From Terriglobia bacterium (GTDB taxonomy: Bacteria > Acidobacteriota > Terriglobia > UBA7540): 59,561 nt of DNA. The position numbers and the translations under genes were made by a program. Position 1 is the first letter of the stretch. Each line of letters begins with the position of its first letter. Below are positions 45 to 59,213 of the stretch, in pieces. The stretch covers positions 1 through 59,561 of the forward strand of contig DATKQU010000209.1 of assembly GCA_035532595.1 (NCBI GenBank). Reading direction: 5' to 3'. The notes beneath the pieces are model-generated. The model was not told where the DNA came from, made no database searches, and saw only the letters and a program-made list of their open reading frames with translations.

Positions 45-658
45 CTTGCAGGCCAAAGCCCTAAGAACCCGCGGCATAGAAAGCCTGCCGTGGCGACCAA
101 CTTCTCCCGCCCTCGCCTTCAATTGAGCCTTCATGACTCAGAACTGCGCAATCGTCATTTGTAATTCGTAATTATCCCCGCAGGCCGCGCGTGGACGAAG
201 GAATTACACGCAAGCATAAGAGCCTAGTGTACTAGTCTATATATTGCATTCCAGCCCGCCAAATGAGACGCATGGGACTTTAGGCTGAGAAAAGCCTTAT
301 ATTAGTAAGTATAATTTTATCAGATGCTTACAAAAACTAAAGGGCGCTGAAATTTGAAAAAATGAGCCAATGTGTGCCATCTTTGCACACCGGGTAAAAA
401 TTACGGACTCCCAAATGCGCCGCGCCATTCCCGCTGGTAGCGGAGATATCTCCACTTGTAATTTCATGCTGTCCTCGCCGGACTCCGTCCCTTGCGCAAG
501 GCAGAGGCTCAGTCCTCTTCGGCTCGCGAATGTCGTTCCGCATTACCTCTCCCACCCTATCGCCCGAGGAACGGAGCTAACGGGAAGACTCGCTTTTGAC
601 TCGGGGACGATTGCACTATGCTCTATAATACGGGAGTTTTACTTAAGCTGAAGGCGGG

Positions 659-1927
659 ATGAGTCGCAGCGCAAGGCGATGCCGGAAATTTGGCAGGGCC
701 AGGAAAGAACAGGCAGTGAAGCAAACTAGGAAATTCATTGTAGTGATCGCGGGACTATGCGGATTTGTGGGTCTCGGTTGGCAAGCTGCGCGTGCCCAAG
801 TAAACACGCGGGTGTTGCTTTCCAGCGGCGCCGGCGTTCCAAACCATCCCGGCTTCACCTTTGGACCTTTTTACGATCTGGCCATGAACTCCCGAAAGCA
901 AATTGTCTTCCGCACAACGCTGCAAAGTCCCCGCACAGATTCGCCAGCCATCGTGCGTTCGGAGGGCGTCACGTTTTCGGTTGTGGCTTTCGGAGGACTT
1001 GTCTCCCCCGTCCCGCGAGAGGTCTATGACACCTTCAGCGCTCCCAGCATCAACGACGCGGGAAGCGTGGCCTTCACGGCGACTTTCAAAGAAGGGGCCA
1101 CTACGGCGGCGGTGGTGGAAGTTGAAGGCGACCAATCACGACTGGTGGCTGCGAATGGCAGCGCCGGGGCGAGCGATGGAGGCCCCGCCTTCAAAGAGTT
1201 TTCGGCGCCCGTCATCGGCTCGGACGGAGAGGTGCTGTTCGCGGCACGCATGGAGGGTTCGGGCTCAGGCCTGTATCTTTGGACGCCTCAGGGTATTCAT
1301 CAAGTGCCGCTGCCCCAGGGTTTCCATCTTGGGCCGCAAGACATCCTGCAGCCGTTGTTTTCCAGCAACAACGAAGCCGTATTTGTGCGGCGAGGGACGC
1401 CCCTGCAAGTCGCCAGTGAACAACTCTTTCGCGCCGTGGCCATCAAGAATTTCCAGCAGTTAAACACGCCTCCCGCCCCCGCTGAAACGGTGCAAGTCTT
1501 GCCGGCCCGGCCGGAGCAAGAGCCCGTCCAGTTGCTCCTGGTCTTGCTCGAGGGCGGAAATGCGCAGACCGCCGTGCTGGCAGGCGATCCCACTCAGCCG
1601 GTCATCGCCAAACGCTCACCCGGCATGGACTCTTCCGCCTCCGTATCGTTTAGCGAGATCCAGGGACAAGCGGCAGGACCCAACAGCGGCAGCGTCATCT
1701 TCGCGGGCCAGCCTGCGCAGCACGAAGACGGCTTCGGAATCTTTTGCTTTTGCCAAGGCGAGGTGGTTCGCCTGACCAGCCAGGAAGATTTCTCCATGCT
1801 CGTCCACAACCTGAATGGAAGACCTATTGTATCCCTCGCTGGCGACGCTCAGCATGTCGCGGCTTTCATCGCTCCGGTGGGAACGCAGCCGGATTCGAAC
1901 GCCATCTTCGTCTCTTACATCCCGTAG
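659..1927 (+). CDS. Secreted repeat protein with NxxGxxAF-type (choice-of-anchor tandem repeat-like) units
   Basis: N-terminal basic plus hydrophobic signal (FIVVIAGLCGFVGLGWQAARAQ). Recurring units INDAGSVAFTA, GSDGEVLFAA, SNNEAVFVR, GSVIFAG. Function unknown. Confidence 0.6.
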   Translation: MSRSARRCRKFGRARKEQAVKQTRKFIVVIAGLCGFVGLGWQAARAQVNTRVLLSSGAGVPNHPGFTFGPFYDLAMNSRKQIVFRTTLQSPRTDSPAIVRSEGVTFSVVAFGGLVSPVPREVYDTFSAPSINDAGSVAFTATFKEGATTAAVVEVEGDQSRLVAANGSAGASDGGPAFKEFSAPVIGSDGEVLFAARMEGSGSGLYLWTPQGIHQVPLPQGFHLGPQDILQPLFSSNNEAVFVRRGTPLQVASEQLFRAVAIKNFQQLNTPPAPAETVQVLPARPEQEPVQLLLVLLEGGNAQTAVLAGDPTQPVIAKRSPGMDSSASVSFSEIQGQAAGPNSGSVIFAGQPAQHEDGFGIFCFCQGEVVRLTSQEDFSMLVHNLNGRPIVSLAGDAQHVAAFIAPVGTQPDSNAIFVSYIP

Positions 1928-2210: not shown

Positions 2211-3554
2211 TTAGACTTTCAGCTTCCACGGCGCGCGGTATTCCCGCATCAGGTATTGTTCCGCATTTCTTCCCGAGCTTCCGAACGCCAGGGCTTGCTT
2301 GCCAACATCCCAGACAATGCGTTCCTGGCTGCGCAAAGCGACGTTCCCCAGCAAACAGGCGCTGGTCGAACGATGCCCGATCTCGATATCGCTCGCGGGC
2401 CGCTGGCGTGACTTGACGCAATCCAGAAAGTTCCGCACGTGATCGAAGTGAGAATCGTTGGCCTCCTTCATTTGCATTGACGCCGTTTGCGCGACTTCCT
2501 TCCCGTCCAGCTTGCGCGATTCAGGGATGACCTCAAAACCGCCCCGGTCGACGAAGAGCGTTCCGTCGGTGCCGTGGAACTCAATGCCATAACTCTTGCC
2601 GTACATCGAGTTCGCGTTGTCCCAGCGATTCTCATAAACGCATACGAATTTGGGATTTTCGTACTGGTAGGTCACCTGGAGGGTGTCCGGAGTATCGGCG
2701 TTATCCTGAAGATAGAATTTCCCGCCCTGCGCGGTAATAACCTTCGGGCCGTCAACCTGCATTGCCCACTGGACGATGTCGATCAGGTGCACGCCCCAAT
2801 CGGTCATATACCCGCCCGCGTAATCCCAAAAATAGCGGAACGTCGACCAGCGTTCGCCCACCCCAAACCGATTCGAATTGAAAGGAACTTTCGGAGCAGG
2901 CCCCAGCCAGAAGTCCCAGTTCAGGTTTGAGGGCGGATCCGAATCGGCTGGGCTTCCGATGCCTTCCGGGTATTGATTGTCGTAATTCCAGGTGCGGACA
3001 AAGCTGACTTTGCCGATGAAACCATCCTGAACCAGCTTGACGGCCTTCTGGAAGTGAATGCCGGATCTCTGCTGCGTTCCGGCCTGCACGACCCGCTGAT
3101 ATTTGCGGGCGGCCTCCACCATGGCTTTGCCTTCATCGACACTGTGGCAAATGGGCTTTTCGACATAAACGTCTTTGCCGGCTTTGCAGGCCTCCACCAT
3201 CGGAAGCGCATGCCAGTGGTCCGGAGTGCCGATAATGACCACATTGATGTCCTGGCGATCCAGGATGTGTCGAAAGTCCGTGTAGGTCTGGGCCTTACCC
3301 TGGGTGGCCTCCAGGGCTTTATCAAGATTGGGCTGGTAGACGTCCGCCAATGCGGCGATTTCGACCTCCGGCTGCTTGGCGAAGTCTTTCAAATCATAAA
3401 GGCCCATGGCGCCAGTTCCGATGACGCCGGCAATGATCTTATCGTTGGCAGAAACCGTTTTCGCCGCACCGACGGCGGGAAATCCGATCCCTGCGCTCAC
3501 GGCCCCGATCGCGAAGCTTTTCATGAAGTCGCGTCGATTGAAGTCTTCGGTCAT
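2211..3554 (-). CDS. Gfo/Idh/MocA family oxidoreductase, Tat-exported
   Basis: Start moved to MTEDFNRRDFMKSFAIGAVSAG (twin-arginine motif). Rossmann motif IIAGVIGTGAMG. The ORF-track upstream 69 aa look like read-through. Confidence 0.85.
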   Translation of the reverse strand: MTEDFNRRDFMKSFAIGAVSAGIGFPAVGAAKTVSANDKIIAGVIGTGAMGLYDLKDFAKQPEVEIAALADVYQPNLDKALEATQGKAQTYTDFRHILDRQDINVVIIGTPDHWHALPMVEACKAGKDVYVEKPICHSVDEGKAMVEAARKYQRVVQAGTQQRSGIHFQKAVKLVQDGFIGKVSFVRTWNYDNQYPEGIGSPADSDPPSNLNWDFWLGPAPKVPFNSNRFGVGERWSTFRYFWDYAGGYMTDWGVHLIDIVQWAMQVDGPKVITAQGGKFYLQDNADTPDTLQVTYQYENPKFVCVYENRWDNANSMYGKSYGIEFHGTDGTLFVDRGGFEVIPESRKLDGKEVAQTASMQMKEANDSHFDHVRNFLDCVKSRQRPASDIEIGHRSTSACLLGNVALRSQERIVWDVGKQALAFGSSGRNAEQYLMREYRAPWKLKV

Positions 3555-3815
3555 GGTGAAGGTTCCGTTCCTTTCTTGGTGCGAGTTCCCTGCTTGGCGC
3601 CGATTGTATATCACCGCGGCCCCACATCCAAGCCGGGTCGCGGACTGCCTTGTGGTTTTCTTTGCATGAGCCGTGGGAGGGCGAAGCCTCAGGGTGGTGG
3701 GCGCAGGGTCATTCCTTTCTGCCGGAACTTTCCCGCAATGTGGCAAAATGGTTTGTTCCAAAGGGAGAGAAGGGGAGAGTGGTGAAATGGGATGCCGTGA
3801 GCTGCGCGGTGAAGC

Positions 3816-4154
3816 TTATTCCCTGCTCAACTTGCTGGCCAGGGTAAGAATTAGTTTTCGGTTGGCTGTGGACATATTTTCAAAATACTTCGCCAGCTTC
3901 CGCATCGATTTTGACTGGCTGGTGTGGGGAGGGACGCGGGCAGCCAACGGATGGCCGCCGCCGTGAAAAAGAAGCTGATAGGGTTCAACCTCCAAAGCCT
4001 TGGCGAACTTATCCAGCGTCGTCAAAGAAGGCGCGGTGTATCCGCCTTCCACACGGGAAATATACGAGCGCAACAAGCCCGAGCGCTTTTCAATGTCTCC
4101 CTGCGAGAGCCCTTTAGCCTCGCGCAGAGTCCGAATTCGCTTTCCGATATCCAC
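3816..4154 (-). CDS. XRE-family helix-turn-helix transcriptional regulator
   Basis: IRTLREAKGLSQGDIEKRSGLLRSYISRVEGG is a classic Cro/C1 HTH. Confidence 0.8.
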   Translation of the reverse strand: MDIGKRIRTLREAKGLSQGDIEKRSGLLRSYISRVEGGYTAPSLTTLDKFAKALEVEPYQLLFHGGGHPLAARVPPHTSQSKSMRKLAKYFENMSTANRKLILTLASKLSRE

Positions 4155-5311: not shown

Positions 5312-5710
5312 ATTGGATTCCGCCTTAACAGCCGTCCCCATTGCCCGTTCCGGGTCGCGGCCAGGACAAGCGTGAAGGGGCCTTGTCGCCGCGGCCTACA
5401 AAACCGATCCACACCAGCATGGGAGCGTAGCAGATATTTGTACCATGAACCGGAGTCCGGCGGGTAAAACAGTGGCCGGCAGCTCGGAAAACGCCAGGAT
5501 AAGTTTGGCCCTGAAAACTCTCAAGGACATGCGGGGCGTTCCCTTTTCTGATTCGGGGAGTTCCGGCAGGATTGCGCCACCGGCCCTGCCAAAGGCCTGA
5601 AACCAATTCCTGGCGGCTTAATCTAATAGCTGGAGGAGCAGGCTTTGCTTTGCCATCAAGCGGGGAGTTATCCAGACCCCTGCGAGTTTGTTGAAAAGCG
5701 ATTTGGACAT

Positions 5711-5778
5711 GTCATGCGGCGCCCGTTCGCTTCGCTCAGGGCCGTTCGCAAGCTGAGGGCGAACGGGCTCAGGATGAC
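5711..5778. repeat. Half copy of the GTCATSCTGAG palindromic element
   Basis: GTCATGCGGCGCCCGTTCGCTTCGCTCAGGGCCGTTCGC-AAGCT-GAGGGCGAACGGGCTCAGGATGAC. Confidence 0.65.
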
Positions 5779-38553: not shown

Positions 38554-38698
38554 GGTTCTCCTCGCCTCGCTTGCAGCGCCGGGCTAGATGCCCGGCATGC
38601 CGCCCTGAAGGGCGGCGCTGCGAACAAAGATGTTTTCCGAATGCAACCCTTGGAAGAATTACAGATCGCGCCCGGCAAATCAAGCTGCGAGCCCGCTG

Positions 38699-38787
38699 GG
38701 TAGTGGGTCGATTTGGCCGGGTAGCGGCAAGTTTACCTCGCCATGTGGCGGCATAAAGCCGCCTCTACGTCAAAATGACCCACTACC
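38699..38787. mobile_element. 89-nt MITE with GGTAGTGGGTC terminal inverted repeats and a perfect 8-bp TSD (GCCCGCTG)
   Basis: GCCCGCTG at 38691..38698 and at 38788..38795 flank the element. The second copy (4 mismatches) is at 52182..52270. Confidence 0.75.
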
Positions 38788-38933
38788 GCCCGCTGAATGA
38801 CGTATTGACAATTTTACCCTTAAGAACTGATACTTGGTTTGCTTAGTTGATGGAAAGAGCAAAGGACGCACAGAAAATCAGGACATTTGACCCCTTGCCG
38901 CTGCGGGAACGCTTCTCCTCCCGGGATTTTTCC

Positions 38934-41404: not shown

Positions 41405-41761
41405 TCTTTGGCGGCGATCTCCCCCGAACAGCGCAAAGCGAAAAGCAGATTCCTCGCGGAGTTTACCCTGAGCCCCTTCGCTTCACTCAGGGCCGTTCGC
41501 TAGCGGAGGGCGAACGGGCTCGGAATGACTGTTTGAGGAGGCCGGTCGCCGACGGCACGTCGCCGCTACAATAGGCGTGCCGAAGGGACTTTCTTGCCGG
41601 GCGTAAAATGGAAGATGGTAGCCACGGACAGTGCCTTTCTGTCCGTGGGCCTTTCAATACGGCACCAACCCACTAAAGCTGTAGCGGCGATCTATGATCG
41701 CCGGCCGTTTGGAAAAATCAAAAACCGGCGGCCATAGGCCGCCGCTACAATAGGCGCGGGC
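41405..41761. repeat. REP cluster with three families
   Basis: GTCATSCTGAG-family copy 41445..41529. GTAGCGGCG half unit 41541..41570. GATGGTAGCCACGG hairpin 41614..41652. GTAGCGGCG palindromic doublet 41679..41749. Confidence 0.8.
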
Positions 41762-49143: not shown

Positions 49144-49291
49144 GGATGGGTGGGTCGAAGTGAAAGCAAACCTCGCTTTCTGCTGCCGGGAGTTCGCTAG
49201 TACTTAGTGCCGCCAGTTCGCGTTATGTTTGCGCCAGCTAAGCCGCTTGTTTGCCGATGGTTGAAATAACGGCCACTTTTGTCACGAAGTA

Positions 49292-49645
49292 CTAGAGCAG
49301 TCCCTTTTCCTGCTTTTCCTGGCATTCAATGCAATGGCGGGCCCAGGGCACAGCCTCCAAACGCTTGACTTGGACGTATTCCTGGCATTCAACGCAAAGA
49401 CCGTACGAACCATTCTCCATGCGCCCAAGGGCCTCCTCGATCAGGTGCAGGATCCGGTGGTTGTCATGACTTTGATGGAAAAGAAACTCCTTGGTATAGG
49501 AGTTCGCCGCTTTGTCAGCGGGGTCCTGAGTAGCTTCCCCATCCGCCTCGCGACCGTCTTGTTCGGATTTTGCGACCGTGCGTCGAAGCTCTTCCTGCTT
49601 TTCCAATAAGCGCTTCCTGTAGGTCTGAATCTTTCTCTTATCCAT
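49292..49645 (-). CDS. DksA/TraR-family C4 zinc-finger protein
   Basis: Coiled-coil N-terminus and CVECQEYV...HCIECQ C4 finger. Confidence 0.85.
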
Positions 49646-49901
49646 GGCCCTCTTGCACTAAAAGTCTGTTAAGTTTTTAAACGTTTGATTCTATCGTTCA
49701 CGCCGTCCATGTGTCAATCCAAACCTCAGCAAGGTGGTGTCCAATTTGCCTGAGCCGGTCGCGTAAATAACTTGCTTTTGGAGACAAAATATAACCCACA
49801 ACACACTGAAAGTGTATCATGGGCTACCCGGCCTTATGCGGGTGCCGTTGTACGTTCAACAGACAACGAGGAGCAAAGAACACCAGCTAAACCAGTACAA
49901 C

Positions 49902-50780
49902 ATGACTATTGGTATTAGTTTACTTTGCGAGTCTGGCAACACACTTCTATTGGGAGCAGATGCACGTGCGTCGTATGCTGGTACGCAACCGCTCCCCCGC
50001 CCGCATGATGATATGTGCAAGATATTTACTCTTCCTTTGGGGTTTCAAGCCGTTATCGCCGGATACTTTGATGCCTGCGAAGCCGTGATAGCCTCTCTTA
50101 CAGAAGCATTTAGGCGCGTTAAACAAGAATTACAAGGAAAAGAAGTGGGGCTAGATCATCTTCGTTTTGCTGTTACAGAAGCAGAAGCGCACGAATGGCA
50201 GATTATTCTTGATAGGGAATTTCAAAAACATCTTGGTATACGGCATCGGGATTGGACAACAGGCCCGCTAGATACGCGCCTAGTTCGAGCGGGTAAGCGG
50301 ATAGTACAGCAAACAAATTTTCCCGTACACCTCATCATTACCGGTTTTACCAGCTATGAGCCAATCATTTTCACTGTATCGGGACTCGATACTATCAGTT
50401 TCCCGCAAAAATTTGCTGTTATTGGCAGCGGTTTTACATTGGCAACAAACGCCTTAAATCAACGCCAGCAGTATGAGCACATGACCTTTCAAAGAAGTGT
50501 CTTTCACTTGATCGAGGCACTAGAAGCGGCAAGGCAAGAACCGCAAGGAACGGTTGGACCGCCAAGGGACATTGTTGTAATCGAGAGAGGGGCCTATAGG
50601 TCGCTACCTGTCCAAGACCCCGTCGTGCGCCAATTGCTATCACAGTATCAAGGCAAAGACAGCAAAGACCTCGATAACGATAATGCCATTCGGCAAAAGC
50701 TACAAAGTATTTTGTACGCCAATCCGCTTGATGAAAGCAATCGGGGGCCGTCGCCGGGCGGGGTTATACCTTCTTCTTAG
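49902..50780 (+). CDS. Proteasome-beta/HslV-like Ntn-hydrolase-fold protein (orphan)
   Basis: MTIGISLLCESGNTLLLGADARAS resembles the T1...G-x-x-L-x-x-D-x-R proteasome-beta N-terminus. A Lys-Ile pair (CKIF) follows downstream, and AVIGSGFTLA appears later. Upstream track starts (49812, 49836) are possible as a propeptide. Confidence 0.55.
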   Translation: MTIGISLLCESGNTLLLGADARASYAGTQPLPRPHDDMCKIFTLPLGFQAVIAGYFDACEAVIASLTEAFRRVKQELQGKEVGLDHLRFAVTEAEAHEWQIILDREFQKHLGIRHRDWTTGPLDTRLVRAGKRIVQQTNFPVHLIITGFTSYEPIIFTVSGLDTISFPQKFAVIGSGFTLATNALNQRQQYEHMTFQRSVFHLIEALEAARQEPQGTVGPPRDIVVIERGAYRSLPVQDPVVRQLLSQYQGKDSKDLDNDNAIRQKLQSILYANPLDESNRGPSPGGVIPSS

Positions 50781-50925
50781 CCCATCGCGCTAACACCGCT
50801 TTCCGCGCTGACTGACTGCGTTGCTCTGGCGTCATAGCTGCGGCCCTGGCAGGACCGCCCTTCTTACCACCCTTGCTTCCGAGCTTGGCAAGGTAAGCTC
50901 GAAGTTCTGGAGGCATCTTGTTCAT
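50764..50925 (-). CDS. Candidate 53-aa lysine/arginine-rich small protein (below the ORF-track cutoff)
   Basis: Reads MNKMPPELRAYLAKLGSKGGKKGGPARAAAMTPEQRSQSARKAVLARWAKKKV. Convergent with, and overlapping by 17 nt, the 3' end of the Ntn-hydrolase-like gene. Confidence 0.35.
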   Translation of the reverse strand: MNKMPPELRAYLAKLGSKGGKKGGPARAAAMTPEQRSQSARKAVLARWAKKKV

Positions 50926-50966
50926 GGCCCAAACCTACCTGAGCCGCTCACGAAAGTCAAGGAAAA

Positions 50967-51128
50967 CTAGAGTGGGTGCTTCTTGAGATACAAAAACATG
51001 CCGTATGCGAGCATTACGGCGAGCATAAAGCCGTACTTACCTTTTTCTGAAGCCAGCCACAAAATGAACGTTGCGCTCGCCAATAAGCCCACAAGTGCAA
51101 ATAGCGATTTTGAAGAGTTGTCCGCCAT
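50967..51128 (-). CDS. Candidate 53-aa two-helix small membrane protein (below the ORF-track cutoff)
   Basis: Reads MADNSSKSLFALVGLLASATFILWLASEKGKYGFMLAVMLAYGMFLYLKKHPL. Two hydrophobic stretches. Weak RBS. Confidence 0.35.
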   Translation of the reverse strand: MADNSSKSLFALVGLLASATFILWLASEKGKYGFMLAVMLAYGMFLYLKKHPL

Positions 51129-51310
51129 AGGTTTTTAGGGTTTCCGGTGTGCCTGTGCCAAGGCGTCGCTTCGGCGCGGTGTGTATGGCATTTCCCCGCC
51201 TACTGGCAACGGCGATAGCCCGAGCAACAGGCACGCCGGAAATATAGCACAACCCTACGCTTAACTAGTGTCAAAACTGCCTGCAATGCAGTGCAGGCCT
51301 AAAAGTTTAT

Positions 51311-51651
51311 GGGGTGAGTAGGTCTGAGGGCTGGTGTCAATCCAGACACCAGCCCCTTAACGCCGGGCTGGTTTCTGTTAACGAGTTGCCAGTCCGACGG
51401 CAACGATTGCCAGAAGGTCAAAACCGCCTTACGACGACTCCGTTTCGGACGCAGCGCAGAATCCCTGCTTTGCGTCAGGATGCATAGTCTCTATAGGCAA
51501 AGTACACCTATGGCAAGATGGCTGTTGCCGTACCGTTGCGCGGCTGATCCTGCCGCCATCCGCACTTCTGGCCCCAGGTGCATCAAAAGTGTTTTCAATG
51601 CACACCTCCTCCCGGAGTGCCGGGTCGCCAGAATTGTAACTCACCCCACCA
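51311..51651 (+). ncRNA. Candidate structured RNA of unknown class
   Basis: A 9-bp long-range helix GGGGTGAGT (51311..51319)/ACTCACCCC (51639..51647), followed by ACCA, encloses at least 6 local hairpins (for example the 11-bp GGGCTGGTGTC/GACACCAGCCC at 51328..51355). No convincing ORF. Confidence 0.3.
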
Positions 51652-51757
51652 GTTCTGATACCGATTAAGTCACCGGCAGTGATGTCCGATCTGCCATGAG
51701 TAGCTTACGCAAATAGTTAACCTGTAGGGCAACCAAATCCAAAAAGAGAGGTATGCA

Positions 51758-52102
51758 ATGACCAAAACGCAGTGCTATAGTTCTTGGCCGGAGGGTCTAT
51801 ACCGCATGAGCCAAGAAGATCAAGACAAGCAGTTTATCAGCGACCTACAAAAATATACCGAGTTGCAAGCTAGCTTGGCGTCTGTCCAAGCAACGCTCAC
51901 CGACATCGGAAGAAATCTGAAAGGAACAGGTGAGAGCGTGGAACGCGACCCTTATAACTGCTCAACCGAGTGGGGTATATTTAAGAGCCAAACAAGCCAA
52001 ATTGAGGGGCTCGTAAAGCAGTTCAAAGAGGAATCGAACGAAAGCCAAAGGCTTGCAGAGTCATTAAGAAAAAGACGGTTTACCTTCCCGCCCAATAAGT
52101 AA
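51758..52102 (+). CDS. Hypothetical coiled-coil protein (114 aa)
   Basis: AGAGAGG RBS. Heptad-like LQKYTELQASLASVQATLTDIG and IEGLVKQFKEESNESQRLAESL. No family recognised. Confidence 0.5.
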   Translation: MTKTQCYSSWPEGLYRMSQEDQDKQFISDLQKYTELQASLASVQATLTDIGRNLKGTGESVERDPYNCSTEWGIFKSQTSQIEGLVKQFKEESNESQRLAESLRKRRFTFPPNK

Positions 52103-52181
52103 CCAACTCACGCAATTCCACCACCAAAGCCTGTGCAAGTACGTGACCGGCTCAGGCAAATTAGGACACCACCCTCAGCAA

Positions 52182-52270
52182 GGTAGTGGGTCAATTTGGC
52201 TGGGTAGCGGCGAGTTTACCTCGCCATGTGGCGGCATAAAGCCGCCTCTAGGTCAAAATGACCCACTACC
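52182..52270. mobile_element. 89-nt MITE (second copy) directly abutting the cassette TSD
   Basis: Same element as 38699..38787. Flanked by CTCAGCAA (52174..52181) and CTCAGCGA (52271..52278). Confidence 0.75.
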
Positions 52271-52457
52271 CTCAGCGACTTAGCCTACACGCGCTGGATC
52301 GACCGCGCTTGCAAAGCAATCCTCCAGGCTTAAGCGGCCAGGAAGAGCGTTTTCACAACGAAGAGGAACGCCAAGCCTGCCGTCCCGGCTGCGCTGTCGG
52401 AGTAAATTCGAAGTAAAGAGCGAATCGGCCTTCGCAGACCGAATGCAGGGAAAAACA

Positions 52458-53023
52458 GGTAAGCGCGAGCAAGCCTGTAAGCCGAATTTTGTACCCCGGA
52501 GGTCCGGGGTGGCGATCATTCATCTAGCCCCGTCATTGCTGGCGGGGTCAAGCGACCTACCCGAGAGTTGCCAGCCCGTAGCGGCGGCCCGTGACCGCCG
52601 TGCGCGGCCCGCGGGAACCCCGGCGATCACCGATCGCCGCTACAGACCTTGCGGAGCGGGTCACTCCTCCTCTCCTATTTGGTCTTGCTCCGTGTGGGGT
52701 TTGCCCTGCCCCCCATATCGCTATGGAGGCGGTGCGCTCTTACATTAAGCCGCCTGCGCGGCCGCACCTTTTCACCCTTACCGCGTCCCCATTCTGGAAT
52801 TCCAGAGGAGACGCCGGCGGTATCTTTTCTGTGGCACTTTCCGTACCGGAGGCGTACGCTCGCTTGCGCGAAATCCCCCTCCGGCCCTCGCTGTTAGCGA
52901 GCACACTACCCTGTGGAGTTCGGACTTTCCTCTCCTCCGCTCCCGCTTGCCTGCCCCGTGCCCGTGAAGGCCGGAAACAGGCGCCTGAGCGGAGCAGCGA
53001 TCACCCGGCTTACTCGCGCTGCC
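52458..53023 (-). ncRNA. rnpB: RNase P RNA, bacterial type A, unusually long
   Basis: The minus strand reads GGAGGAGAGGAAAGTCCGAACTCCACAGGG, GGTAAGGGTGAAAAGGTGCGG...TAAGAGCGCACC, CACGGAGCAAGACCAAATAGG and GGGTAGGTCGCTTGA...CTAGATGAATGATCGCCAC...ACAAAATTCGGCTTACAGG. P1 is GCGCGAGTAAGCC/GGCTTGCTCGCGC. Ends are good to about 5 nt either way. Confidence 0.9.
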
Positions 53024-55204: not shown

Positions 55205-57604
55205 ATGCATGATCAGCCTGAAGCTTTTTCCCGTGTCCTGATAGATCAAGCCCTCCGAGAGAGTGATTGGGACCTCCTCGACCCGCACCGGGTTCGTTTT
55301 GAGCTTAATGGTCATAGCGGGCGGGCGGATTATGTCTTGAGCGGGTCGCGCGGGCCGCTCTGCGTTTTGGAAGCCAAGCGCGAAGATAAGGACCCCTACG
55401 AAGCCAAAGAGCAAGCGCGCGGCTATGCGGAAAACCTTCGTGCGCCCTTCATTATTCTTTCCAACGGGCGAGAACATTGGTTCTGGAACTACGAGCGAGC
55501 AGACCAGCGTGATGCCTACCGCATCGAGCGCTTACCGTCCCCCCAAGACCTCGACCGTCTCCGCCTCAAGAATCTCCAGCCGCCCCGTCCCTTAATGACG
55601 GAGGTCATTGGGCCAGATTACCTTAACGCGTACAAGCCGGACGTGACATTGCGGCGTTACCAGATCGCCGCCATGGATGAAGTTTCAAGGCAGTTTGACG
55701 ACCAGGGAAAACGAAGGTTTCTGCTGGAAATGGCCACCGGGACCGGTAAAACGCTCTTGTGCGCGGCGCTGATTCGCCGTTTCCTTGCCACGCGAAACGC
55801 CGAGCGCGTGCTTTTCATCGTGGACCGTATCGAACTGGCAAAGCAAACGATGGAGGACTTTAACGTCGTGCTGCGGGAATTCAGCCCCGTAGTGTTCAAG
55901 ACCGCACGCCGCCACCCGTCGGAATTGCTGGGCTCCTGCGTGGTGGTGGCAACGCTCCAATCCCTCATGGTGGACCGTCGCTTTCGCCAGGAGTTCACGC
56001 CATTCCACTTTGATCTGGTCATTGCCGATGAAGCGCACCGTTCCATATATGGCAACGCTCGCGAGGTCGTACATTTCTTTCAGGCGACTCGCATTGGCCT
56101 GACTGCCACGCCCAAGGCATATCTCAAGAATATTGATTTGGCCCGGCTCGGGCGGGAAAACCCTAAAGCCCTTGAAGCCCGCGAGCTTCGCGACACCTAC
56201 CACTACTTTGGCTGCGAGGCCGGTTTCCCCACATTTCGCTATGACATCATTGAGGCCGTCCAGGACCCCGAAGGGCCGTTCCTCTGCATGCCGAAGATTT
56301 ACGACATCCGTTCGGACATCACCACTCAGGCACTGGACGAAAACGGCTGGGCCGTGGTGGTTAACGAACAGGAGGAAAACTTCAAGATTCAGGACCTGGA
56401 GCGCAAAATCTTCACCCCGGAGCGGAACCGGGTGATGTGCGAAGCGTTTCTCAAACATGCCCAAAAGGACCCTTCCGGCCAGATCGGCAAGTCCGCCATT
56501 TTTGCGGTCAATCAAGACCACGCGACGAACCTTACTAAAATCCTTAACCTCATCCAGCCGGGCTTGGCCGTCACCATCACTTCGCGTATTCCCGAAGCGG
56601 CTTCCATCTCGAAAGATTTCCGCGACGGCAAGCGCTCCGAGCGCGTGGCGGTGTCCGTCGATATGCTCTCCACGGGGTACAACTGCCGCGACCTGTTGAA
56701 TGTGGTCCTCATGCGGCCGATTTTTTCTCCCACCGAATACATCCAGATCAAGGGCCGGGGCACGCGCCTTTTCACTTTTCGCTTTGGCAACACCGAATAC
56801 GAAAAGAAAGTATTCTTCCTGCTTGATTTCTGCGGGGTGGCCGAGTACTTCGAGGACACGTACGATTACAGCGAACCCCTGCCCATCCCCGTCCTGAGGG
56901 GAAAGCCATCCGTGCAGCTTGAGGTGGCACGGGCTTCCAGCCCGTGGACGGATGACACGGGCATTCTGCCTACGGCCAGGCACGGTCAAGATGACCATGC
57001 CACAGGCATCCCCGTGTGGGAAGGCAAGGACGTCATCATTTCCGAAGAAATCCGTATCGTGGGACCCAACGGTGAAAAGGTGGATGTGATGACCTTCCGG
57101 GGTTCTTTCGAGCGGGACATCAAAGAATTTGACCGTAAGGATGAGGAATTTCACGAAGCGGTCGAGACTGAAGGCGATGACGCCGTTGAAGAAATCCTTG
57201 GCGAACGTTTCTTTCACAAACCCGAGATGTTTTATTCCCCGGACAAACTGGTGTTATCCTATGGCGTTCCGGCTCCTACGCCTACTTTTGTTTACGGCGC
57301 TCTGGGCAAGAAGCCCTTGCCGAGCAAAGACGAGGTGGTTGCCGATGCCGTGGATTCCATCGCCGCGCGGTTCAATCTCCACTACAGCGAACAGAAGTGG
57401 TTGAACGCCACGGCACAGCTTCTCGCGCATGACCCGGCGGCTCTCAAACGCTTTGCGCAGGGTGACATGACGATTTTCGCGTCCAGCCAGTTCAATCAAT
57501 TGGGGGGCCTCGAAGCGCTGAACGAATTCACTGACCGCGACGAGGTTTTTGAGGCGCTTCGGCAATCCACCATGGTCCGCCAGTCGCTTCTGGCCGCTCA
57601 GTAA
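55205..57604 (+). CDS. hsdR: Type I restriction enzyme R subunit (EcoEI-type C-terminal domain)
   Basis: PD-(D/E)xK region ADYVL...VLEAKRE. Helicase motifs MATGTGKT, IADEAHRS, IGLTATP, QIKGRGTR. C-terminal FNQLGG tail. Contains an in-frame REP copy. Confidence 0.9.
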   Translation: MHDQPEAFSRVLIDQALRESDWDLLDPHRVRFELNGHSGRADYVLSGSRGPLCVLEAKREDKDPYEAKEQARGYAENLRAPFIILSNGREHWFWNYERADQRDAYRIERLPSPQDLDRLRLKNLQPPRPLMTEVIGPDYLNAYKPDVTLRRYQIAAMDEVSRQFDDQGKRRFLLEMATGTGKTLLCAALIRRFLATRNAERVLFIVDRIELAKQTMEDFNVVLREFSPVVFKTARRHPSELLGSCVVVATLQSLMVDRRFRQEFTPFHFDLVIADEAHRSIYGNAREVVHFFQATRIGLTATPKAYLKNIDLARLGRENPKALEARELRDTYHYFGCEAGFPTFRYDIIEAVQDPEGPFLCMPKIYDIRSDITTQALDENGWAVVVNEQEENFKIQDLERKIFTPERNRVMCEAFLKHAQKDPSGQIGKSAIFAVNQDHATNLTKILNLIQPGLAVTITSRIPEAASISKDFRDGKRSERVAVSVDMLSTGYNCRDLLNVVLMRPIFSPTEYIQIKGRGTRLFTFRFGNTEYEKKVFFLLDFCGVAEYFEDTYDYSEPLPIPVLRGKPSVQLEVARASSPWTDDTGILPTARHGQDDHATGIPVWEGKDVIISEEIRIVGPNGEKVDVMTFRGSFERDIKEFDRKDEEFHEAVETEGDDAVEEILGERFFHKPEMFYSPDKLVLSYGVPAPTPTFVYGALGKKPLPSKDEVVADAVDSIAARFNLHYSEQKWLNATAQLLAHDPAALKRFAQGDMTIFASSQFNQLGGLEALNEFTDRDEVFEALRQSTMVRQSLLAAQ
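56924..57003 (+). repeat. GTGGCACGGGC-type REP copy inside hsdR
   Basis: GTGGCACGGGCTTCCAGCCCGTG...CACGGTCAAGATGACCATGCCAC, translated as ...VARASSPW...ARHGQDDHAT. Confidence 0.75.
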
Positions 57605-57606
57605 AG

Positions 57607-57658
57607 GTGGCACGGGCATCTTGCCCGTGAAGCCTCATGGCCCGGAGGGCCATGCCAC
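57607..57658 (+). repeat. GTGGCACGGGC-type REP copy in the hsdR-hsdM spacer
   Basis: GTGGCACGGGCATCTTGCCCGTGAAGCCTCATGGCCCGGAGGGCCATGCCAC. Two nested hairpins inside an outer GTGGCA/TGCCAC stem. Confidence 0.8.
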
Positions 57659-57681
57659 AGGGCAATTAGCTGATTCTTCTT

Positions 57682-59124
57682 ATGGGAAATAACACGCAAC
57701 AACACAACGGGAGTAATTTTCATTCCTCCGGCCTGCGCCAAAAGATTGACCTGCTCATGGACATCCTTTGGGCGGGCGGCGTGAATAACCCCATGGATTC
57801 CATCGAGCAGATTTCCTACTTGCTCTTTCTGCGCCTGCTCACGGAAAGGGATGACATTCTCGCCTCGCTCCAGAAGAAGGGCTACCAGCGCATCTTTTCG
57901 GGATCGTGGGCGCGCTACGCCTGGGGGAATTTTGTCACCCTCACCGGCGATCAGCTTTTTGACGCCGTCCGGTCTGCGATTGAAAGCATCCACGAACTGC
58001 CGGGGCTTTCGGGAACCGGAAAACTTCTTTTCAATCGCGCCACGCTCAAGATTTATGACCGCCCCACGCTTCGGGCCGTTGTCCAGGCCATCCATGAGAT
58101 GGATCTTGCCTCACACAATGGACATGACATCAAGGGCGATATGTACGAGTACCTGCTCAGCAAACTCCAATTGTCCGGCACCAACGGCCAATTCCGGACC
58201 CCGCGCCACATTATCGCCATGATCGTGGCACTCGTTGATCCCAAGCCGGGAATGCGCATCTGCGACCCTGCCTGTGGCACAGCAGGCTTCCTCATCGCAG
58301 CATACAACCATATCTTGCGGCAGAACACATCCAAGGCGGCGCTCGCCAAAGGCGATTCAGACGGCGATTTATTGAAGCCTGCACAATGGAGATTCCTGGA
58401 GGAACACGCCTTCACCGGCTATGACAATGACGCCAACATGGTAAAGATTGCGATTTTGAATCTTTATCTGCACAAGCTGGAAAGGGCCAACATTGAGCTT
58501 CACAATCCCCTGACCACAAGCAAGGGTAACCCCTATCCCGGCTTCACCTTTGACACGATTCTCGCCAATCCGCCGTTTGCGGGACAGATTCAAAAGGAAA
58601 GTATCCTTGCGGACATCAACCTTGAGACGCGAGACACAGAACTGCTCTTCCTCAAGTGGTTCCTCGACCACCTGAATCCCGTCGGACGCGCCGGTGTGAT
58701 CGTTCCGAACGGCGTGTTTAAGCCCTATTCCGGCGTCGGCACTGCGGCGCTGATTCTTGAAAAATGTGGCACGGGCGTCCCTCCCGTTAAAGACCATGGT
58801 CAGGATGACCATGCCACGGAGTTTGTCTGGTTCTATGACCTCACGGCGGATGGATTTTCCCTCGATGATAAGCGCGCTCCAATTGAGGCCAATGATATTC
58901 CCGATGTTCTAGCTAAATGGCCCAAGCGCGAAGAAGGTCCGAACAGTTACCGTGTGCCAATTGAGAAGATTCGCGAGCACGATTGGAGTCTCGCGTCAGG
59001 CAGATACAAGCCGGTGGTGGTGGAGACGGTTAAGCACGATGCACCGGCAAAAATTGTCGGCGCCATCTTGAGTCTCGAGAAGCAGATCACCGAAGAAATC
59101 CAGAAGCTGATGGAGAAGCTGTAA
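57682..59124 (+). CDS. hsdM: Type I R-M N6-adenine DNA methyltransferase subunit, probably defective
   Basis: HsdM N-terminal domain, motif I DPACGTAGFL, motif IV NPPF. Carries an in-frame REP insertion and appears to lack about 30 aa between PNGV and FKPYSGV. Confidence 0.8.
   Translation: MGNNTQQHNGSNFHSSGLRQKIDLLMDILWAGGVNNPMDSIEQISYLLFLRLLTERDDILASLQKKGYQRIFSGSWARYAWGNFVTLTGDQLFDAVRSAIESIHELPGLSGTGKLLFNRATLKIYDRPTLRAVVQAIHEMDLASHNGHDIKGDMYEYLLSKLQLSGTNGQFRTPRHIIAMIVALVDPKPGMRICDPACGTAGFLIAAYNHILRQNTSKAALAKGDSDGDLLKPAQWRFLEEHAFTGYDNDANMVKIAILNLYLHKLERANIELHNPLTTSKGNPYPGFTFDTILANPPFAGQIQKESILADINLETRDTELLFLKWFLDHLNPVGRAGVIVPNGVFKPYSGVGTAALILEKCGTGVPPVKDHGQDDHATEFVWFYDLTADGFSLDDKRAPIEANDIPDVLAKWPKREEGPNSYRVPIEKIREHDWSLASGRYKPVVVETVKHDAPAKIVGAILSLEKQITEEIQKLMEKL
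58766..58817 (+). repeat. GTGGCACGGGC-type REP copy inside hsdM
   Basis: GTGGCACGGGCGTCCCTCCCGTTAAAGACCATGGTCAGGATGACCATGCCAC, translated as CGTGVPPVKDHGQDDHAT. Confidence 0.8.
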
Positions 59125-59127
59125 GGT

Positions 59128-59213
59128 GTGGCACAAACGTGGCACGGGCGTCCCGCCCGTGAAGAACCATGGCCAGGAGGGCCATGCCACTGCGCATGAC
59201 CAGGATGGTCATG
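59128..59213 (+). repeat. REP array (partial unit, full unit and an extra hairpin) between hsdM and the RAYT gene
   Basis: GTGGCAC-AAAC-GTGGCACGGGCGTCCCGCCCGTGAAGAACCATGGCCAGGAGGGCCATGCCAC-TGCG-CATGACCAGGATGGTCATG. Confidence 0.8.

Follow-up and report, generated by a model that had tools for sequence, protein, structure and literature searches.

A cargo cassette and a miniature inverted-repeat element stacked on one 8-bp target sequence upstream of dksA: possible insertion guided by a resident transposon end

How two unlike mobile elements can come to share one and the same target duplication is a question raised by a site in the genome of a Terriglobia bacterium (Acidobacteriota; assembly GCA_035532595.1), where a cargo cassette without transposase and one miniature inverted-repeat transposable element (a MITE) lie side by side between the gene dksA (49292-49645, minus strand) and the RNase P RNA gene. 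The stretch analysed, referred to here as the window, comprises the 59,561 nt of contig DATKQU010000209.1, and the loci fetched for comparison are designated by L numbers. Read to the base, the order is CTCAGCAA, a cassette of 2441 bp, CTCAGCAA, a MITE of 89 bp and CTCAGCGA; the layout proposed in an earlier reading of the letters alone (the original prediction), in which cassette and MITE share one 8-mer present in three copies, is borne out to the base, with the third copy identical at 7 of 8 positions. The best explanation, to which we give a probability of roughly 0.6, is that both elements are non-autonomous members of a widespread IS1-family clade, that they are mobilised in trans, and that one of them was inserted in a manner targeted to the end of the other, which was already resident.

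The 8-mer is not rare, given that CTCAGCRA occurs six times in the window against 4.6 occurrences expected. An exact match of 8/8 positions between the cassette flanks has a chance probability of 4^-8 = 1.5e-5 and a match of at least 7/8 between the MITE flanks one of 3.8e-4, and by the same arithmetic the joint probability of meeting the 8-mer at three element boundaries is about 6e-9. The tandem arrangement is also present in independent assemblies (L001, L239 and L240), and an assembly artefact is therefore ruled out, as is chance by the arithmetic of the flanks. Consistent with the resemblance of ends that had been pointed out originally, the right end of the cassette and the left end of the MITE match at 17 of 23 positions in a gapless comparison.

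The cassette has the features of a mobile insertion cassette, namely imperfect inverted repeats (33 and 34 nt), CTCAGCAA on both sides and four open reading frames (ORFs), none of which encodes a transposase domain. It starts with GGTGGTGTCC, a terminus of the type GGTGGTGTC, and its right tip is GGACACCACC, so that an excised circle would join GGACACCACC-CTCAGCAA-GGTGGTGTCC; its GC content is about 50%, against 57-59% in the adjoining 2-kb bins. Since a tblastn search with the transposase of the clade described below detected no homologue in the window, mobilisation must be in trans. No above-threshold match to the cargo was obtained in Pfam, NCBIfam, PADLOC, PHROGs or Rfam, no other insertion site of the cassette was found (the 114-aa protein occurs at this locus only), and in 1.39 Mb of fetched loci no other cassette-type ends were seen, except for an internal GGTAGTGTCCTAATTTG in L069. 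The small basic protein is of a recurrent type, with the motif KGGxKGGxxRAxxLxPEQRxxIAxxAAxARW across elements, and is found at L042 3255-3545, at L044 6194-6612, where it is the sole gene of a 419-bp element, and at L247 1075-1284; the L247 protein, annotated 'histone H1' in Mesorhizobium loti, is 64% identical to that of the cassette over 33 aa. It may be an accessory factor of these elements, and its shared motif is a second link of the cassette to the clade. The single homologue of the 292-aa cargo protein (51% identity) lies in a 2.06-kb IS1595-family element (L242 4959-7018, also L243-L245) with ends of the form AACAGGATTATTTACTT..., which are unrelated to those of the cassette; the same cargo type is picked up by two different small transposons.

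The MITE is short, non-coding and multi-copy, it is bounded by terminal inverted repeats, and it makes an 8-bp duplication as do its autonomous relatives L042, L069 and L247, with which it shares its termini over 17-19 nt. The repeats form imperfect arms of 30 nt (GGTAGTGGGTCAATTTGGC... and GGTAGTGGGTCATTTTGAC..., 77% complementary) and the element folds into a strong hairpin (z-score -7.6). Its second copy in the window is flanked by GCCCGCTG at both 38691-38698 and 38788-38795, and this copy did use a different target, as originally noted. In soil sequencing runs, words of the MITE reach a depth of 2400-4100 versus about 2-10 for the adjacent unique sequence, and the MITE therefore represents a very abundant repeat family in these soils.

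To which family do these ends belong? A scan for the MITE terminus, with one genome per species, gave at least 106 loci, and among the loci listed elements of many kinds, spread over several phyla, end in the same 11-19 bases; they include palindromes of 21-29 bp, MITEs of 50-420 bp, cargo cassettes and autonomous elements. The clade so defined is characterised by GGTRGTG... termini, duplications of 8 bp and a DDE transposase encoded in a single ORF, passenger genes being common, and its autonomous members were recovered at L042, L069, L246 and L247. The first two measure 4097 bp (duplication GGAAATGC, transposase of 282 aa) and 3042 bp (duplication GACTTTTG/A, transposase of 272 aa). Their transposases match the Pfam domain DDE_Tnp_IS1 (PF03400) with 29.6 and 30.4 bits over about 40 residues, against a gathering score of 24.1, and have NCBIfam transpos_IS1 as top match with 57 and 68 bits, below its cut-off of 100. 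In GenBank/RefSeq, the label 'IS1 family transposase' is attached to relatives of 55-59% identity that are encoded on plasmids of two cultured bacteria, Mesorhizobium loti and Acidiphilium multivorum. The element on a complete M. loti plasmid (L247) is 3370 bp long, with the terminal inverted repeat GGTAGTGGGTCAGTTTGAAAT and the duplication CGCTGGTG. The Acidiphilium element (L246) has GGTARTGTCTCAGTTTGAAA ends, a terminal inverted repeat of the type GGTARTGTCTC and the duplication AAGCCGAG; because its ends resemble the GGTGGTGTCC ends of the cassette, the latter fall within the range of the clade.

In the definition used by ISfinder, the IS1 family comprises elements with ends GGnnnTG and 8-9-bp duplications, with a subgroup that carries passenger genes. 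The present clade has DDE_Tnp_IS1 matches, ends GGTAGTG or GGTGGTG, which follow that pattern, and 8-bp duplications in 25 elements, but the window elements carry no transposase and the clade transposases score only 57-68 bits where NCBIfam demands 100. The Pfam match and the annotated relatives point to this IS1-like clade as the probable answer to the earlier call to find the transposase family that carries these ends. It had also been suggested that cassette and MITE use the same or a related transposase: a related one is indicated by the shared MITE termini and by cassette ends within the range of the clade, while the use of the same enzyme is unproven. Parentage by the IS1595 family was considered and rejected, given that the ends of the L242 element are unrelated and that transposases bounded by GGTRGTG score best as IS1; PF12762 reached 19.4 bits against a cut-off of 27, in one of the two transposases, and NCBIfam IS1595 34 against 75. 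Among other elements with these termini there is a 750-bp one without transposase (L071 6986-7735, duplication CGTATCCG/A), whose single 206-aa ORF is beta-carbonic-anhydrase-like by eye, and the palindromes of 21-29 bp consist of two element tips only (for example GGTAGTGGGTCGACCCACTACC) with the 8-bp duplications kept, and are probably remnants left after loss of the element interior.

Is insertion next to a resident end a habit of the clade? Metagenome contigs were scanned for a right end followed by a left end, facing outward, within 0-30 bp, which yielded at least 120 loci. Among the junctions listed, to which the following counts refer, the spacing is exactly 8 bp in 83 of 121, the next commonest values being 7 bp (10 junctions) and 10 bp (5). 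Because some junctions are orthologous or copies of one another, those with spacers differing by at most 2 bases in either orientation were merged, a procedure that over-merges, and even so 28 of 58 clusters lie at 8 bp (P about 2e-26 versus a uniform distribution). Eight base pairs is the smallest spacing that an insertion duplicating 8 bp can leave beside an intact end, and the peak therefore corresponds to insertion into the 8 bp that abut the end; abutment at one fixed distance from a resident repeat is a feature of inverted-repeat (IR) targeting. Selection for harmless sites could enrich insertions near elements, yet it would not favour 8 bp over 9-30 bp.

A sequence-specific target can be ruled out as the cause. 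Over all eight positions, the duplications of 25 independent elements (the two of the window and 23 from a genome sample taken without selection) hold 0.8-0.9 bit, and with less than 1 bit of target information sequence preference cannot explain the re-use of the same 8 bp. These results agree with the original prediction in three respects: both elements make 8-bp duplications, which are real in 25 independent elements, the two of the window included; the re-use of one 8-mer is not a matter of simple sequence specificity; and the 8-bp peak is in favour of targeting to an existing element end.

Where the far end of the neighbour lies on the contig, the spacer is usually the same as the outer flank, although most metagenome contigs are short and both sides could be checked for a minority of junctions only; spacer and outer duplication agree with at most one mismatch at 22 real element sides. 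Exact triples are found in L123 (GTCAAGAG, 421 bp, GTCAAGAG, 384 bp, GTCAAGAG) and in L122 (TAAAAATA, a 2767-bp insertion sequence (IS) with transposase, TAAAAATA, a 29-bp palindrome, TAAAAATA). In L215 (1896-5705) three different elements stand in a row, separated twice by CATTCACG, the middle one being 3772 bp long with a disrupted transposase gene. Elements of 1009 and 55 bp in L159 (43-1114) are separated by GAATTTTT and flanked on both sides by the outer duplication CGGCGTTC; here a stacked pair has transposed jointly, as a single composite. Homologues of the IS1-like transposase, from full length to short fragments, were detected by tblastn in 39 of the 120 junction loci listed, and junctions occur at either end of transposase-bearing elements. 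In L213 (2355-5075), two stacked elements, 758 and 1955 bp long, are enclosed by the duplication TGAACGGG/TAAACGGG and separated by an inner 8-bp spacer, CCCGTTTA, the reverse complement of that duplication; this spacer seems to have been flipped between two inverted termini.

How could such a stack arise? We propose that a single-ORF DDE transposase encoded elsewhere in the genome would move both cassette and MITE in trans, making 8-bp staggered target cuts with almost no sequence preference, and that one element would have entered the 8-bp duplication abutting the other, resident element, whereby the same 8 bp were copied a third time. The transpososome that holds the incoming element would take the resident terminal repeat for a donor end and cut the target in register with it: one strand transfer would attack the bond at the 3' tip of the resident element, which is normally cleaved when that element is the donor, and the other would take place on the opposite strand, 8 nt outside the tip. 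The product, a right end, 8 bp and a left end, would have the form of the active IR-IR junctions of copy-out-paste-in elements. Stacks could then grow, as the three elements of L215 suggest, and later move as a composite, as in L159; the analogy of IS30 suggests that resolution of a stack may occur as well, and an allele of this locus that lacks the cassette (see below) would thereby be accounted for.

Several observations weigh against the idea that the resident end is recognised. Stacks are a minority outcome, with not one of the 133 unselected ends of the genome sample (among the matches listed) lying in a junction, and the 45 non-junction ends in the metagenome loci are no independent test, having been defined as those outside junctions. 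No autonomous element with the exact ends of the cassette was found, and these ends match those of the MITE at the 17 of 23 positions only. Left-right orientation specificity is a hallmark of IR targeting in IS30, and here the terminal 11 nt are identical at both ends. In addition, a relative with a DksA 93% identical (L234) carries a different, third element at the same position, after CTCAGCGG. This last point also speaks for a hot spot at the locus, where the same 8 bp would have been hit independently through some property of the site (DNA bending, a hairpin of ancestral origin, or a protein bound just upstream of the -35 region of dksA), with no part played by the resident end. The site does lie 7 nt upstream of a near-consensus candidate promoter of dksA, and in a relative with an empty site (L241, DksA 91% identical) CTCAGCGG forms part of a hairpin with a 9-bp stem between dksA and rnpB. 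We nevertheless regard a hot spot as unlikely: the 8-bp register is met again at dozens of other sites, which are unrelated to this one and have spacers that are unrelated too, the target 8-mers hold less than 1 bit, and after the first insertion half of any symmetric site context would have been replaced by an element end. The pattern in L234 and L241 would fit element turnover at one docking site as well. The L234 element (about 560-800, reverse strand), which starts with GGTAATGGGTGATTTTAAC and has a 140-aa ORF, is situated on the upstream side of the dksA promoter, and no far end could be located for it on that contig. As guides to the ancestral empty site, the relatives L241 (empty) and L235 (with an FMN-reductase gene there) are too diverged for base-by-base alignment.

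It is hardly credible, by comparison, that cassette and MITE arrived as one composite or that the 8-mers are repeated by coincidence or through an artefact of assembly. Movement of composites as units does occur in this family, as the different outer and inner 8-mers of L159 illustrate, but inner spacer and outer flank are the same in the window, which for a composite would be a coincidence of 1.5e-5; moreover, a MITE-only allele at the same site shows that the two elements are separable, and several independent assemblies agree on the arrangement.

Which element came first? Contigs with identical DksA fall into two classes, those with the cassette (L001, L003, L004, L005 and L240) and those without it (L002, from a JGI soil metagenome, and L006, a Logan contig), which read ...aaac CTCAGCAA MITE CTCAGCGA ctta.... 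When the contigs of three soil runs were aligned to the window, a joint skipping exactly 2449 nt (2441 + 8) appeared with a depth of 8.8 in run X2, where the depth of the cassette is mostly 3-6, and the cassette has therefore been gained or lost recently within one population. The cassette is thus present or absent at one site, the difference being 2441 + 8 bp, as expected of a mobile element. The A/G difference between the outer 8-mers (CTCAGCAA and CTCAGCGA) is common to both alleles. The original prediction had placed the MITE insertion after that of the cassette. This order is not supported, because the MITE-only allele in the same population argues against so simple a sequence of events: the cassette may have been the second to insert, or it may have gone again afterwards.

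That the stack came first, and that the MITE-only allele derives from it by cassette loss, seems to us somewhat short of an even chance; such a history would concern the order of events only and is compatible with end-targeting. Loss could have occurred by deletion between the 15-bp direct repeats CTCAGCAAGGT(G/A)GTG, one of which lies at each of the two left ends; alternatively, the transposase could have resolved the IR-IR junction, a kind of reaction by which one element is lost from IS30 dimers (PMC9333248). The MITE starts with GGTGGTGGGTC in the MITE-only allele and with GGTAGTGGGTC in the stack, and GGTGGTG followed by GGTC is exactly what would be left if crossing-over had taken place in the final 3 nt of that 15-bp repeat; the skipping joint has 3 ambiguous nucleotides, and A is the usual family base at position 4 of the MITE. 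A simple insertion into the MITE-only allele would, on its side, need no more than a single additional base change, or conversion by a different copy of the MITE. What recent deletion leaves unexplained is that the MITE alleles differ at three further internal positions, amounting to 4 differences in 89 nt versus about 4 in the remaining 3,700 nt of the alignment, and these differences therefore suggest that other copies acted as conversion donors or that the two alleles have been separate for longer. No joint leading from 52173 back to 49733, as a circle would give, was seen in the low-depth contigs.

End-adjacent insertion has precedents, known for IS30 and IS911 from laboratory work. IS30 integrates beside its own IRs and thereby forms a new IR-IR junction (PMC9333248). 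The stack described here is similar in that the incoming element stands beside a resident repeat at a spacing equal to its own duplication length (2 bp in IS30, 8 bp here) and in that stacks can be built, which in IS30 can also be dissolved (PMC9333248); it differs in the IS1-like transposase, the 8-bp register, the involvement of different non-autonomous partners and the persistence of the junctions in natural genomes. In IS30 these features go with an orientation-specific junction, circular intermediates and tracts of gene conversion. For IS911, of the IS3 family, targeted insertion takes place at a fixed short distance from a resident IR-like surrogate end (cited in PMC7986276). Both family and spacing are different there, and the IS911 reaction depends on the OrfA/OrfAB ratio and on RecG. 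Targeted conservative integration by IS26 also places a new unit beside an existing copy, but requires identical ends and transposase (PMC7986276). The ends of cassette and MITE differ from each other. Furthermore, the 8 bp were duplicated a third time here, whereas the targeted reaction of IS26 is not known to produce any further target duplication. Tandem Tn7-like elements, tandem casposons and the growth of CRISPR repeat-spacer arrays likewise give an order X-element-X-element-X from a re-used duplicated target; those systems, unlike this one, read a specific host sequence or leader, while here the 8-mers are close to random and the neighbouring end is the common feature. Circles of IS1 reportedly carry a spacer of 6-9 bp. 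IS1 is among the families listed with circular intermediates (bioRxiv 10.1101/2023.06.07.543989).

MITEs, mobile insertion cassettes, IS1-family relatives with passenger genes and end-targeting in IS30 and IS911 are all known already. What would be new is this behaviour in an IS1-like clade, a register equal to the 8-bp duplication, and a natural footprint at population scale with different non-autonomous partners; a limited literature search, with some classic IS1 papers outside it, returned no description of end-targeted stacking for IS1-type elements or bacterial MITEs. If the explanation is right, such events have a sequence signature, namely two outward-facing ends one duplication length apart with the same 8-mer outside, and the pile-up of MITEs, insertion sequences and cargo cassettes at single sites would be explained together with their fusion into composites. 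It would also suggest that the clade uses an IR-IR junction with an 8-bp spacer, and Mesorhizobium loti 582 and Acidiphilium multivorum JZ-6 would be cultured hosts for testing this. A wider picture, to which we hold only tentatively and which is rather doubtful, is that resident MITEs serve as landing pads, where cassettes and insertion sequences dock in the 8-bp register, stack, leave via the IR-IR junction and fuse into composites, which would amount, in soil bacteria, to a system that is guided by ends and reversible and into which small gene cassettes can be plugged; in effect this would resemble an attachment site, but with nothing other than a DDE transposase and the elements' own terminal repeats.

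The stack lies immediately upstream of the dksA promoter candidate, whose GTGTCAA is invariant in relatives. Being located directly upstream of the core promoter and variable within one population, it may affect expression of this global regulator. The coordinates of these and the other features are collected in Table 1.

Table 1. Positions of the stacked elements, their repeats and ORFs, and neighbouring features (window coordinates unless a locus is named)
Feature	Position	Strand	Remarks
Second MITE copy, 96% identical	38699-38787 (38691..38795 with duplications)	+	Repeat search
dksA promoter candidate, sigma-70-like	49688..49717	-	TTGACA, 18 nt, TAGAAT; 11/12 matches
Duplication copy 1, CTCAGCAA	49725..49732	+	Left of cassette; start 7 nt upstream of dksA -35 hexamer
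Cargo cassette without transposase (mobile insertion cassette), 2441 bp	49733..52173	+	Sequence, inverted-repeat pair
Left inverted repeat of cassette, GGTGGTGTCCAATTTGCCTGAGCCGGTCGCGTA	49733..49765	+	Sequence, inverted-repeat search
Cargo ORF, 292 aa (314 aa from upstream GTG)	49902..50780	+	Weak, sub-threshold proteasome/Ntn-hydrolase-like match
Cargo ORF, 53 aa, small basic protein	50764..50925	-	Motif KGGxKGGxxRAxxxTPEQRxxxARxAxxARW
Cargo ORF, 53 aa, hydrophobic	50967..51128	-	ORF list, profile scans
Cargo ORF, 114 aa	51758..52102	+	Exact copy found at this locus only
Right inverted repeat of cassette	52140..52173	-	Reverse complement is GGTGGTGTCCTAATTTGCCTGAGCCGGTCACGTA; one T more than left repeat
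Duplication copy 2, CTCAGCAA	52174..52181	+	Spacer between cassette right end and MITE left end
MITE, 89 bp	52182..52270	+	Sequence, repeat search
Duplication copy 3, CTCAGCGA, 7/8 identical	52271..52278	+	Same variant in MITE-only allele
RNase P RNA gene, class A	52462..53016	-	184 nt right of stack
Tip palindromes (other loci)	L019 6101-6127, L031 1149-1175, L107 1865-1891, L146 1239-1260, L122 2836-2864		

Other repeats are found around the stack and elsewhere in the window. The RNase P RNA gene is 555 nt long against a model of 367 positions, and in variants on soil contigs a 33-nt hairpin takes the place of 110 nt (the additional segment at about 52563-52674). This segment contains palindromes of a CTGTAGCGGCG...CGCCGCTACAG repeat family also present at 41679, 54545 and 54889, and looks like an insertion similar to a repetitive extragenic palindrome inside a helix of rnpB. 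Between a comF-like ORF and dksA there is an unrelated polymorphic insertion of about 91-93 bp (49201-49291, GTACTTAGTG...CACGAAGTAC) with a TA/CTAG duplication, which is absent from L003, L005, L006 and L007, corresponds to a 95-nt skip in the soil runs and has the look of a MITE from a different family. Small repeats abound in the window, among them an 88-nt unit in three copies (2096-2183, 5691-5778 and 41442-41529) and a 62-nt hairpin unit in four copies (56948-59196).

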